A stretch of 63,728 bases of DNA, filler included, from Pseudomonadota bacterium (GTDB lineage: Bacteria; Pseudomonadota; Alphaproteobacteria; Paracaedibacterales; CAIOTO01), in NCBI GenBank assembly GCA_040387495.1. It is 5 parts of 4 records of this genome, joined end to end, with 100 filler letters (N's around TTAATTAATTAA, not from the genome) between each part and the next. Parts side by side here need not be neighbours in the genome. Positions count along the whole stretch, not along the records: positions 17,130 to 44,049 come from JAZKDQ010000012.1; 4 more parts are not named here. One strand, written 5' to 3'. This document shows positions 36,001 to 39,000 of the stretch, in pieces (the stretch's first letter is position 1; each line of letters starts with the position of its first letter). Made by a program: the position numbers.

Positions 36001-39000
36001 CCGCATAGCCATCCCCATTGACATCGCCAGCGCTACTGACAGAGTAAGCAGCATAATAACCAGTCCCGGCACCTGTGATGCTAATCCCCTCTGTCGTCAA
36101 ACTCCCTAAATTTAAGTTAGCCGCACATGATTTTTGCACATAGGTAGCAAGACATAGAAAACCAACAAAAAACTGAAAGAATTTCGAAAAAGGTTCAGTA
36201 TAATGAATAGTTTTCTTTTTGTTTGCCGCAACTGCTATTAGCTGTTCAGATGGAACTTCTACATGGCAAATGGATTCTTGAAAAGATGCACACTTTTCTT
36301 GATGCGGATAGGCATTTTTCATTTCAATGAAAGGAAGCGAGCCATTAAATACATTCGTATCATGATATGAATCCATTGCAACGGCTTGACGTATCGTCAT
36401 CACACAAAAACAAAACAGCACAATCGTGGAAATAATTTTGCGGCAGATAGATGTTTTAACAGGCGCACATTGATAATCATAATGTGTATGTAACATCAAT
36501 ATGCTTTCCTGATAGGGTTAGATAATATATATGTGTACGATTTTTTATCTTTACAAGAGGAATTCTTAAATAAATTACTATTTTTTTTACGTTAGAAATA
36601 TTCTAATGCATCTAATTTAAAAATTCCACGACATGCCGTAGAGGCATTTTGGGGGTACGCCCTCGGTTACCTTGATGATGTGAGAGTAAACATTCGATTC
36701 GATTCTTCTTTTGGAATTGTTGTCTTTTTTAAATCTACCGGTGTTTATTTATATGCGTGGTTTTTATTACGCAAGAAAAAATATTTTGTATTGCACAGAA
36801 TTTACATAATATTAACAATTACTGATGTATTATACATTATGTTAATTTAAAGTTTTAAGTTCTTATGTACCTATGGATAATTATATTTTTGCACCTTCTA
36901 TGTATGAATATCTGTAATGCGGCTATTAATACCAACACAATTGAACTCGACACAACCAACACAATTGAACCTGAATTATTTTTAATTGCAGATACTGTCA
37001 ATCTTAACGCTCCGGCGAATGGTGGTATCATAGATGCCCCTCCTGTTATACCGAGCACATTTCAGCTTGGGCCGAATCAAATGAACGATCCGCTAAATGC
37101 ACTATTGCAGATTCAGCTTGGCACCAACGACGATATGATCTATGAAAATTTGTGTTGGCATTATTATTTTGGATTTCATCATTTTGAAATTACGCACAAC
37201 GGCCTATCCCCAAAGCAAACAAAGCTGATCGATAAATTTTACTACAGAGTATCTGATATTTGCACGCTGCATACGCGCGATACAACCCTGGATGAAACAG
37301 GTGCAGATCTGTCGTCATATCAATGGGTGTTAAATCTTACCGATAGGCAGATATTATATCCCCATAAATCGATGGCTGAAATTATTGCTGATAATGCAGA
37401 TCATCGTTCAGTATCTTTTCCTAGCTGCTTATATAACGGTTTTGTGCCGGATGAACCTAAAAAAATATGGCCAAAAACAGATGAGCTGCTGGCATACAGA
37501 GGTGCCATTGGGTTTGACAATCCGGTGAGGTTAACCAACAGTGCAGCGACAGGCGACGGGGTGCACATTTCAACAGATGCACATATCGCGACGTATGCGA
37601 CCATGGAAGAGGCGGCTCCGTATGCAGAGGATATGATACAGGATCAGTTGCCCTTTATGGATGTTATGCGGGAGTCGATTCAACATGCTTTTGTACGTAG
37701 CGAAAAACCATGGGATCATGAATATGTTGAGCCAATTATTCAAAATGAAGATGAAAATATATTAGATCAGTTTATTCAACAGAATGGAATAAACGAGTGT
37801 ATTAGATCAGGATCAAATTATTTTTATGTGAATAATCAAAAGAGTGCTAGCTCAAGCATTGCGAAAGCACATGTAAGCCATGAAATAAATAGAATAATCA
37901 ATTTCCCCCCTCATTGGGTGTTTCATAGTTTAACGAGTGCTATACATGATAGATATCAGAAAGTTTTAAATAAAAATAAATTCAAATTTACATGCGTGCG
38001 AAATCCATATGTTAGGGCCTTATCGATGTACCAGCATCTGATACTTCCGCACAAATCTTCGTATAGAATTACTCTTAATTTAAATGCGAACACAATTATA
38101 ACTTTTAAGGAATTTCTTAATGCTGTAAAAAGGACCCCTATTAAAGAAACTGATCTTCATTTCCGTCCACAATGGTGCCTAACGATGACGCCTCTAGTGC
38201 AATACACTCACATTGTACATCTTGAAAATTTCACAAATGAATTCAGACCTGTTATGGATTATTTAGAATTACCGGGTGAGCCTAATGATTACACATGGGC
38301 TGATCATGCAACAGGGTCATCTGGGAAGCTTTCTGATTTTTATGATCAAGAATGCGTTGATTTGGCAAGAGAAGTGTACGAAAAAGACTTTGATTATTTT
38401 GGTTATGATAAAACACCTTACTTTTATTATCTGGAAAATAGTTCGTTGATAAATTTTTAATTCAAATATTTTTTATAATAAAAGCGAATTCACATTTACA
38501 TTTACATTTAATATTTGGGATTACTAGATATTTGCGTAAGTCTTTCATATGCTATCAAGTGCTTTAGCAGGCAAATAATTGAGCTTACGCAAAAGATTTA
38601 TTATTCAAGTTAAAAAGACGTTTTTAAAAAGCTTCTGGATTTTTCCATAAATATACCCTTTTATGTCCGCCACCATTGTAATCAAGTAATAAATCCATTT
38701 TAAGATTATATGGTGCCTTAGTTAAGTCCAGCGGCCTCCATCCTCCATTTTGTATTTCACCATTAAAATTAGATTGATAAGCTAAATCACTGCTCTCACA
38801 ACAATTTGTAATAAGAACATATCTAAATTTATTCATTTGTTTTATGAATAAATCAATGTAAGATTTATTTAAATGTTGGAGTACGTCCTTAATAACACAT
38901 AAATTAGCAGGCTTGATATCTGTAAAATCACCTGAATATGCTACAAATGTTATGTTAGGTGCTCTAAATTTCTGCGCGTTCATGTCAATAATACTATGCG

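Follow-up and report, generated by a model that had tools for sequence, protein, structure and literature searches.

Background

Carbohydrate-type sulfotransferases of the Golgi, of the CHST and HS2ST type, share with the bacterial protein P0001 described here the Sulfotransfer_2 domain, the lysine of the 5'-phosphosulfate-binding loop (5'-PSB), the arginine and serine of the 3'-phosphate-binding motif (3'-PB) and a histidine. Their N-terminal hydrophobic signal puts the catalytic domain outside the cytosol, as the N-terminus of P0001 would also do. P0001 differs from these enzymes in being bacterial, in its fusion to a GT-A domain, in having no luminal PAPS supply system and in belonging to a genome with no PAPS synthesis.

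Bacteria have PAPS-dependent sulfotransferases of their own, which are cytoplasmic and come with their own donor genes, such as NodH with NodPQ and RaxST with RaxPQ. These, and a Sulfotransfer_1 protein found in one of the genomes compared here (G014), resemble P0001 as bacterial PAPS-type sulfotransferases and act on glycans or peptides. They have no signal peptide and lie adjacent to PAPS-synthesis genes, whereas the P0001 family has signal-like N-termini and no such partner. A precedent for spending the activated donors of the host cytosol, in this case UDP-sugars, is found in the GT44 toxins and effectors (YeGT, PaTox, TcdB and the Legionella proteins SetA and Lgt1), which are delivered by routes other than Sec signal peptides. 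Their fold recurs in residues 708-947 of P0009, encoded close to P0001, and the homologue P0005 has this domain joined to its sulfotransferase. The GT44 toxins are not sulfotransferases.

An older claim that Chlamydia makes a heparan-sulfate-like compound, reportedly of its own, was not retrieved from the literature and is not used as evidence here. Known bacterial glycosaminoglycan capsules, for example the chondroitin of E. coli K4, leave the cell unsulfated according to one account (PMC7925653). Giant viruses are, like this symbiont, parasites of the cytoplasm, and their genes include some for GT92-like, GT2, GT32 and sulfotransferase-family proteins; they differ from the module described here in that their glycosylation genes are viral. 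PMC9614988 describes the glycosyltransferases of chloroviruses as having no signal peptides and being active in the host cytoplasm. The top BFVD match of P0001 is a Megaviridae 'sulfotransferase domain-containing protein', over 523 columns at an rmsd of 20, a match that does not establish an exact shared architecture. Full-text searches of an open-access library found no report of a secreted bacterial sulfotransferase using host PAPS, or of a sulfotransferase effector, and nothing was found in the literature searched on exported glycosyltransferases of endosymbionts.

From where would an enzyme such as P0001 obtain its sulfate donor? Here we investigate its gene within a window of 63,728 nucleotides, filler included, from a bacterium of the order Paracaedibacterales (assembly GCA_040387495.1, here G000). 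The sequencing runs listed for it are DNA runs from watershed/freshwater metagenomes, one of which may be the source, with no RNA run among them.

Results and discussion

Gene structure and start codon

The gene and its parts are as follows.

36865..38460, + strand: P0001, whole gene (531 aa plus stop), with predicted signal peptide, acidic linker, GT-A-fold domain and Sulfotransfer_2 domain
36865..36921, + strand: signal-peptide-like N-terminus, residues 1-19, MYLWIIIFLHLLCMNICNA, then A; helix at 2-22 in the model
36922..37089, + strand: acidic linker, residues 20-75, with 0 K+R and 7 D+E; pLDDT below 50 at 22-54
37090..37695, + strand: GT-A-fold domain, residues 76-277, nearest by structure to the GT92 enzyme GalS1
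37816..38409, + strand: Sulfotransfer_2 domain (PF03567), residues 318-515; 2.6e-14, 54.4 bits (cut-off 22)
37834..37857, + strand: 5'-PSB loop NQKSASSS, residues 324-331 (K326); K326 in 17/17 family members
37996..38031, + strand: 3'-PB motif VRNPYVRALSMY, residues 378-389 (R379, S387); both in 16/16 members reaching the region
38152..38169, + strand: DLHFRP, which includes H432 as putative catalytic base; His in 15/16 members

The first-pass annotation had used an internal ATG at 36904, which gives a 518-aa form, and had seen no obvious signal peptide. That absence is an artefact of the start call. An in-frame ATG lies 39 nt upstream, at 36865, and starting at 36904 loses the first 13 residues of a signal-like N-terminus that reads MYLWIIIFLHLLCMNICNA|A. 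The homologue P0003, which is 79% identical, shares the upstream start and begins MHLWIIIFFILLCLNVCNAA. A promoter and terminator scan of positions 36300-38800 gave 12 matches against 12.4 expected, which is chance, and does not settle the start codon.

P0001 belongs to a rare family, found here in small-genome alphaproteobacteria. NCBIfam has no family for P0001, P0009 or P0011, and PDB chains searched with the family profile gave nothing significant (best E 0.22), with nothing likewise for P0009 and P0011. In G000, tblastn found no paralogues of the proteins encoded in this island. Longer fused forms of P0001 (931-2655 aa) were also sought and none was found, in a search that counts as weak evidence.

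The N-terminal domain

The N-terminal region had been described as of unknown fold, on an AF2 model with a pLDDT of 58. A model built from a 102-sequence alignment reaches a pLDDT of 87.9 and a pTM of 0.82, and in it residues 76-277 adopt a GT-A fold. The best structural match is GalS1, the GT92 beta-1,4-galactan synthase (PDB 8d3t, 8d3z), with Z 15.2 and an rmsd of 3.2 over 197 residues; the next match has Z 10.5, and many GT2-type enzymes lie at Z 8-10.5 (model residues 72-262). The top Foldseek matches are all GT-A (E 9e-9), and an Atlas comparison gives TM values of 0.61-0.68.

The domain is not filed as GT92, because its identity to GalS1 is 10-12%, PF01697 gives no profile match at E<=1 and there is no canonical DXD. 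Pfam glycosyltransferase models match none of the 17 family members, even at E<=1. The sole sequence link comes from tblastn, with a match of 56 residues (E 6e-7) to a protein of another genome (G052), in a region that is Pfam Glyco_tranf_2_4 (2.5e-11). Residues H99, Q162, Y190, Y211 and R212 are invariant in the family, as is R161. The DXD position of P0001 reads GFVPDEP (192-198); an acidic residue stands at 194 or 196 in 17/17 members, and D-x-D occurs in P0015 only. The invariant R161 and R212 might act in place of a metal. As modelled, the domain has a glycosyltransferase fold, which would probably make P0001 bifunctional, and we infer glycosyltransferase activity from that fold. Since there is neither a Pfam match nor a canonical DXD, it could instead be a non-catalytic binding module.

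A module of glycosyltransferase-like proteins

The neighbouring genes are all on the opposite strand.

31514..36499, - strand: P0184, 1661 aa; N-terminus signal-like, followed by 7 FG-GAP repeats and a mucin-like region of QPS/QPT repeats of about 480 aa in the protein
38624..39331, - strand: P0010, 235 aa; N-terminal hydrophobic stretch and a weak class-I methyltransferase signal (19.5 bits, below the cut-off of 27)
39430..42333, - strand: P0009, 967 aa; N-terminal hydrophobic segment and two GT-A domains (219-479, 708-947)
42363..43925, - strand: P0011, 520 aa; clear signal peptide, MPKIKMFLTVLMLGVATQNPSHA, then V; conserved neighbour of the sulfotransferase gene

The first GT-A domain of P0009 resembles, at the level of fold, heparosan and heparan GlcNAc transferases: PmHS2 (Z 21.6, 18% identity), KfiA (Z 18.8) and EXTL2 (Z 17.6). 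The second resembles the GT44 toxin and effector glycosyltransferases (Z 19.6 to 16.5), with a DXD that reads D-L-G, and is the domain found in P0005 (E 4e-26). The likeness of P0009 to two-domain glycosaminoglycan synthases (PmHS2, KfiA, EXT/EXTL, CHSY3-CHPF) is fold-level only, and no GlcA-transferase was identified. P0011 may be GT32/GT44-like, which we offer as a lead. Genes like those of P0009 and P0011 adjoin the sulfotransferase gene in 5 other loci. P0184, which is divergent from the sulfotransferase gene, is not conserved beside it in other carriers; it is a candidate acceptor of P0001.

Predicted export from the cytoplasm

Signal-like N-termini were seen by eye in 17/18 members of the two-domain family, most of them with a K/R n-region and small residues at -3/-1, and in 18/20 of the P0009 family. 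By a crude hydrophobicity test they are present in 15/18 family members and in 1/84 of the other Sulfotransfer_2 relatives. An N-terminal signal peptide of the Sec type is predicted in 15-17 of 18 members, by eye and by this crude rule only. The same rule flags 318 of the 1017 G000 ORFs (31%) and misses P0009 itself, so that the 4 of 5 island proteins flagged are weak evidence alone, and the family-wide contrast carries the argument. That P0001 leaves the cytoplasm is supported by these predicted signals, which are family-wide and absent from the sulfotransferase-only relatives; its actual export is what they suggest. Because the neighbouring glycosyltransferase proteins also bear export signals, the problem of the donor would extend to UDP-sugars. 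A UDP-galactopyranose mutase adjoins the sulfotransferase gene in genome G010; its N-extension of 120 aa does not make a convincing signal.

An alternative, which we consider unlikely, is that P0001 works in or facing the bacterial cytoplasm, where imported PAPS (brought in, for example, by a TLC paralogue) would let it take part in normal envelope synthesis by sulfating a polysaccharide or lipid of the bacterium itself. The cytoplasm is the normal workplace of GT-A enzymes, P0001 itself has no basic n-region, and G000 has extra TLC nucleotide transporter genes (two of full length, a third that contains a stop, and a fragment). The contrast between the family and its sulfotransferase-only relatives, the form of most n-regions and cleavage sites and the signals of the partner proteins all speak against it, and TLC proteins are not known to import PAPS.

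By which route might the protein reach its target? G000 encodes a single secretin, an orphan, and a single T2SS-F protein; no VirB4 was found in this genome, and the neighbourhood of the secretin gives no indication of a T2SS as against a pilus. The enzyme could equally act in the periplasm or at the cell surface, with the mucin-like FG-GAP/PT protein that the symbiont itself exports as its substrate.

The PAPS site

The Sulfotransfer_2 domain placed at 304-502 in the 518-aa form is the domain listed above, with the numbering shifted by 13, and its profile matches 16/17 family members. Both PAPS-binding motifs are present, as had been reported, including the Arg and Ser of the R-x-P-x-x-R-x-x-S pattern of the 3'-PB, together with H432, the putative catalytic base. 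The C-terminal half of P0001 is accordingly predicted to be a PAPS-dependent carbohydrate-type sulfotransferase.

It has also to be considered whether the domain has ceased to transfer sulfate and become a binding module, or uses another donor. P0001 would then be essentially a glycosyltransferase or an adhesin, and the missing PAPS would be irrelevant. The 5'-PSB loop lends this idea something, since it reads KSASSS in P0001 against a family consensus of KCGWST, but alanine occurs in the K-x-A-x-T loop of animal Sulfotransfer_2 enzymes. Moreover, family members down to 21% identity retain K326, R379, S387 and H432 (15-17 of 16-17 members), and the same residues, those at K326 and H432 among them, stand in at least 90% of 102 Sulfotransfer_2 relatives. 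Such conservation indicates purifying selection on the PAPS site, and loss of sulfotransferase function is in our judgement quite improbable.

Sulfate activation in the carriers

G000, which is 99.92% complete, had been said to lack APS kinase and both types of ATP sulfurylase, and profile searches in which positive controls gave the expected matches bear this out. The best APS_kinase match in G000 has 17.7 bits (cut-off 21.1) and covers the P-loop end of the model only, and neither ATP-sulfurylase PF01747 nor PAPS_reduct/CysD PF01507 has any match. The sulfotransferase gene is carried by 8 of the 62 genomes of the order, by 0/9 others of the family of G000 and by 6/14 in genus g3, and among the carriers a full-length APS kinase is present in G014 only (5.5e-18), all as first annotated. 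No ATP sulfurylase was found in the 8 carriers (76-100% complete): PF01747 occurs in 0/62 genomes of the order, and PF01507 in 4/62, the carriers not among them. By these searches no carrier, G000 included, can activate sulfate. TLC nucleotide transporters are present in G000 and in 5/5 other carriers tested, which are energy parasites.

Could the pathway lie on unassembled or unbinned contigs, and P0001 be an ordinary bacterial sulfotransferase supplied with its own donor? All of the genomes are draft MAGs, and G014 does have an APS kinase. That kinase, however, stands directly beside a signal-less, cytoplasmic Sulfotransfer_1 gene, at a locus distinct from the P0001-type gene, and given the completeness of G000 and the absence of both ATP-sulfurylase types from 8/8 carriers we regard this explanation as very improbable.

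Contamination by a eukaryote or giant virus with Golgi-type, type-II-anchored enzymes is hardly credible: although Sulfotransfer_2, GT92-like, GT32/44, GT90 and GT10 proteins are typical both of giant viruses and of the secretory pathways of eukaryotes, introns are absent, homologous modules elsewhere in the order have genes for enolase and MFS proteins beside them, and the contig (C12, positions 17130-44049, 26.9 kb) is not considered a contaminant because its GC of 0.389 and tetranucleotide correlation of 0.982 fit the genome and it encodes PtsI, a T2SS-F protein, dCache sensors and an S41 peptidase.

A probably exported enzyme that would depend on host donors

We put at roughly 0.6 the probability that P0001 is a Sec-exported bifunctional glycosyl/sulfotransferase that draws PAPS, as its partners draw UDP-sugars, from the host. 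It would consist of a divergent GT-A-fold domain, nearest to GT92, fused to a PAPS-dependent carbohydrate-type sulfotransferase, and would act within a module of other signal-bearing GT-A proteins. Host-made PAPS, and host UDP-sugars for the partners, would be needed because the bacterium has no sulfate activation and the enzyme would work outside its cytoplasm. Export-type N-termini, the lack of sulfate activation, the TLC lifestyle and the conserved PAPS-motif residues make dependence on host PAPS the simplest reading, and we infer this source of the donor. P0001 may be released into the host cytosol and use PAPS there. Alternatively, it may act in the periplasm or at the surface, where host metabolites of about 500 Da would enter a cytosolic symbiont through porins. 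The product would be a sulfated glycan, and the acceptor presumably either some molecule of the host or the mucin-like surface protein of the symbiont itself. The earlier proposal of an exported effector that works on host PAPS is thus supported as regards exit from the cytoplasm and, as the simplest reading, the donor; delivery to the host would be one possibility, with action in the periplasm or at the surface equally possible.

A bolder and rather doubtful extension is that an obligate intracellular bacterium builds, outside its cytoplasm, a glycan that is sulfated and resembles a mucin or a glycosaminoglycan, with exported Golgi-like enzymes and wholly with activated donors of the host cytosol. 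The set would comprise the GT92-like/sulfotransferase fusion, the heparosan-GlcNAc-transferase-like and GT44-like protein, the GT32/44-like protein and the methyltransferase, and its donors would be PAPS, UDP-sugars and SAM.

Conclusions

The P0001 family would represent naturally soluble bacterial glycosyl/sulfotransferase fusions, possibly useful for the production of sulfated glycans. Should the bolder extension hold, this would be the first bacterium without PAPS synthesis to have a natural pathway of such a kind to a sulfated glycan, and energy parasitism would extend to the host's activated sulfate and sugars. If P0001 is exported and draws on host donors, the host dependence of intracellular bacteria would reach past ATP and nucleotides and take in nucleotide sugars as well as the universal sulfate donor, and exported bacterial enzymes would consume these donors. 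There would then be a reason for a PAPS-less lineage to keep an intact sulfotransferase, and a sulfated glycan at the interface of symbiont and host would serve as camouflage, in adhesion or in the modification of the host.

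The sulfotransferase gene and its predicted export signal

P0001, the sulfotransferase (ST) protein, is encoded among the following features.

36865..38460, plus strand: P0001 gene, ORF of 531 aa
31514..36499, minus strand: FG-GAP/PT protein (1661 aa), upstream of the ST gene and divergent; begins with a signal-like stretch and has seven FG-GAP repeats as well as mucin-like QPS/QPT repeats over about 480 aa
Downstream of the ST gene, minus strand: P0009 (967 aa), two GT-A domains in its model
Downstream of the ST gene, minus strand: P0010 (235 aa), N-terminus hydrophobic; methyltransferase match below threshold
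Downstream of the ST gene, minus strand: P0011 (520 aa), clear signal peptide

The first-pass annotation began P0001 at the internal ATG at 36904, giving a 518-aa form without an obvious signal peptide. The upstream in-frame ATG restores a signal-like N-terminus, MYLWIIIFLHLLCMNICNA followed by AINT, and P0003, a homologue 79% identical to P0001, likewise begins MHLWIIIFFILLCLNVCNAAIN. By eye, a classic n-h-c signal is present at the start of 17 of 18 two-domain members (e.g. MKKSLFTFALALFSYANA followed by SS); the 18th starts within the conserved domain. A crude rule, which asks for a Kyte-Doolittle value of at least 1.9 in an 11-residue window inside the first 40 residues, picks out 15/18 two-domain members versus 1/84 of the remaining Sulfotransfer_2 relatives aligned with them. 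Alone this rule is unspecific, being positive for 318 of 1017 ORFs of the genome under study (G000), and the P0001 N-terminus has no basic n-region. Judged by eye and by crude hydrophobicity, P0001 is predicted to bear an export signal. Set beside these N-termini, a cytoplasmic P0001 using imported PAPS is unlikely.

Two domains in one protein

The Pfam Sulfotransfer_2 model matches residues 318-515 (2.6e-14; 54.4 bits, cut-off 22), and this is the sole Sulfotransfer_2 gene in G000. Residues K326, R379, N380, P381, R384, S387 and H432 are each at least 90% conserved in the 102-sequence alignment of P0001 relatives. In the two-domain family alignment (17 members, one truncated, identity down to 21%), K326 is found in 17/17, R379 and S387 in 16/16 and His432 in 15/16. 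From established family knowledge, we take K326 to be the 5'-phosphosulfate-loop Lys, R379 and S387 the 3'-phosphate Arg and Ser, and H432 the catalytic base. Such conservation speaks for a functional PAPS site, and a non-catalytic ST domain appears quite improbable.

An earlier AlphaFold2 model was poor (pLDDT 58) and the N-terminal region was called an unknown fold. Neither description holds with the 102-sequence alignment, which raises mean pLDDT to 87.9 (pTM 0.82). In this model a helix (2-22) is followed by a disordered acidic linker (22-54), an alpha/beta domain (79-280) and, from about 295, the sulfotransferase domain. The top Foldseek PDB match is GalS1, a GT92 galactan synthase (E 9e-9), followed by GT-A enzymes only. 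Aligned by VIA-align with residues 76-277 of the model, GalS1 gives Z 15.2 (rmsd 3.2, 197 residues; next match Z 10.5), and the ESM Atlas independently gave the same GT-A lead (TM 0.61-0.68). Pfam GT models had no match at E<=1 in the 17 two-domain members. At the DXD position after beta4 all 17 have a single acidic residue (position 194 or 196) but rarely D-x-D; invariant residues are H99, Q162, Y190, Y211 and R212. We therefore call the modelled domain 'GT-A fold, GT92-like' without assigning it to GT92. It is probably catalytically active.

At sequence level this domain is linked to another protein only by 56 residues that match a protein of G052 within its Glyco_tranf_2_4 domain, which is related to the P0001 N-domain. 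This 846-aa signal-bearing protein (G052:C40, L109, 5314-7854, minus strand) also has a P0009-type KfiA-like domain and lacks a sulfotransferase, so the GT-A module moves independently of ST.

Sulfate-donor supply

Can G000 make PAPS? The first-pass annotation held that it cannot, and this stands. The best APS_kinase match reached 17.7 bits (cut-off 21.1), with 11 weak matches all confined to the P-loop end of the model, and profile searches for ATP-sulfurylase and CysD/PAPS_reduct gave 0 matches; control genomes were positive in all three. A P0001-type protein occurs in 8 of the 62 genomes of the order, full length in seven. PF01747 is in 0/62, PF01507 in four (G043, G046, G047, G054), none a carrier of the P0001 family, and full-length APS kinase in G014 only. 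The missing PAPS supply is real and family-wide for P0001. With G000 99.92% complete, PF01747 absent throughout the order and PF01507 in no carrier, a pathway lost merely through incomplete assembly is highly improbable.

The G014 APS kinase (171 aa, 9.1e-18) is on a different contig from the P0001-type gene, directly downstream of a 303-aa Sulfotransfer_1 protein (3.9e-8) without a signal, in an apparent polysaccharide locus (G014:C17, L019, 589-2016). This is a separate cytoplasmic system. In contrast to P0001, its sulfotransferase has an APS-kinase gene directly behind it, yet G014 has no ATP sulfurylase and the system would need APS from elsewhere.

TLC nucleotide transporters are a hallmark of obligate intracellular energy parasites. 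G000 has four matches (C8:53033-56164 and C14:94182-99439): two full-length, one tandem copy with an internal TAA and a 64-residue fragment, which suggests ongoing turnover. All five other carriers tested have them.

The contig

The ST gene lies on contig C12 (26,920 bp), one of 20 in the 1.66-Mb G000; only 17130-44049 of the window is C12, while 1-17129 and 44050-63728 belong to other contigs. The island runs up to the edge of C12, P0011 ending 124 nt short of it, and its far boundary may lie beyond C12. Contamination is scarcely credible: C12 has a GC of 0.389 (0.38-0.41 over the 20 contigs), a tetranucleotide correlation with the whole genome of 0.982, and genes for PtsI, a T2SS-F-type protein, dCache sensors and an S41 peptidase. 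C12 is bacterial and part of G000.

Between two dCache_3 proteins of C12 (18508-22151, minus strand) is a protein of 354 aa whose Neur_chan_LBD domain (2.4e-15) marks the pentameric ligand-gated-channel type, here in an obligate intracellular bacterium. A 468-aa ORF (30682-32088, minus strand) shares about 575 nt with the 3' end of the FG-GAP/PT gene, read in a different frame, and resembles that gene in its repeats. Perhaps it is a frameshifted continuation, or else the repeats read in an alternative frame.

A module of glycosyltransferase-like proteins

In the P0009 model (pLDDT 81.5), residues 219-479 resemble a GlcNAc-transferase domain (heparosan synthase PmHS2 Z 21.6, 18% identity; KfiA Z 18.8; EXTL2 Z 17.6). 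The second domain, at 708-947, is similar to toxin/effector glycosyltransferases of GT44 (YeGT Z 19.6, PaTox 18.9, TcdB and SetA about 16.5), the DXD being D-L-G. By eye, 18 of 20 P0009-family members have signal-like N-termini; homologues are named 'Holosporales bacterium' and 'Candidatus Finniella inopinata', which gives a hint of the order. A GT32/GT44-like P0011 is a lead only (Atlas 0.84, TM 0.43). A search of G000 found no paralogues of the island proteins.

P0009-like and P0011-like genes adjoin the ST gene in G010 (C15), G014, G017, G019 and G021, with further signal-bearing partners including GT90, a GT10-domain protein and an NHL propeller. One homologue, P0005, is a fusion of the ST protein with a C-domain of the P0009 type (E 4e-26). 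P0009-type domains are present, with up to 12 matches per genome, in 31/62 genomes of the order versus 8/62 for ST, which makes ST an add-on to a wider GT toolkit, of mostly signal-bearing proteins where inspected.

At the G010 locus (L103), a signal-bearing NHL-propeller protein is upstream of the ST gene. Immediately downstream (7672-9174, minus strand) is a UDP-galactopyranose mutase (GLF, 2.9e-69), which hints at galactofuranose in the product; its 120-aa N-terminal extension is not convincing as a signal. Genus g8 shows a strong expansion of P0009's GT44/GT32-like domain (G032, G034; 12 matches per genome), with several copies in tandem within single 980-1449-aa frames (e.g. G032:C5:97055-99799).

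Rarity and precedents

The family is rare, with 7 clusters among 5.8 billion proteins, 16 representatives at E<=1e-30 among 1.8 billion, and only three named MAG loci with a full-length protein. Its domain families are already known. Searches of an open-access library yielded no description of the GT-A/Sulfotransfer_2 fusion, of an export signal on it, of its confinement to intracellular bacteria that lack PAPS synthesis, or of a module of mostly signal-bearing GT-A proteins around it. According to PMC7925653, the bacterial GAG capsules known so far, K4 chondroitin for example, are unsulfated on export and the usual PAPS source is cysDN with cysC. Conceptual precedents are the use of host UDP-sugars by bacterial GT44 effectors and the GT and sulfotransferase-family proteins of giant viruses.

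Proposed function

All functional claims on P0001 and its module are computational. P0001 and its partner enzymes would need PAPS, UDP-sugars and perhaps SAM, and carry predicted Sec-type signals in a PAPS-less bacterium living inside a eukaryotic cell. The simplest reading of these points is that they operate outside the inner membrane with donors made by the host, and we put the probability that P0001 is exported and uses host PAPS at roughly 60%.

Where might the enzymes act? They could be released into the host cytosol. As to passage of the outer membrane, G000 has one T2SS-F protein and one orphan secretin, and VirB4 was not found in this genome. The secretin (Secretin + Secretin_N_2; L110, G000:C1 200500-218500, 4050-10241) lies away from any gsp/pil operon, adjoining an 891-aa TPR/ARM-like protein and a 459-aa ankyrin-repeat protein. 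Alternatively, their site of action could be the surface or the periplasm, a space that porins could open to molecules of about 400-570 Da if the symbiont lies free in the cytosol. Within the exported, host-PAPS reading, a host target and the bacterium's own surface are about evenly balanced. The adjacent mucin-like FG-GAP/PT protein is the obvious candidate for an own-surface acceptor in G000, and the GT44-like folds call to mind that domains of this kind usually act on host proteins.
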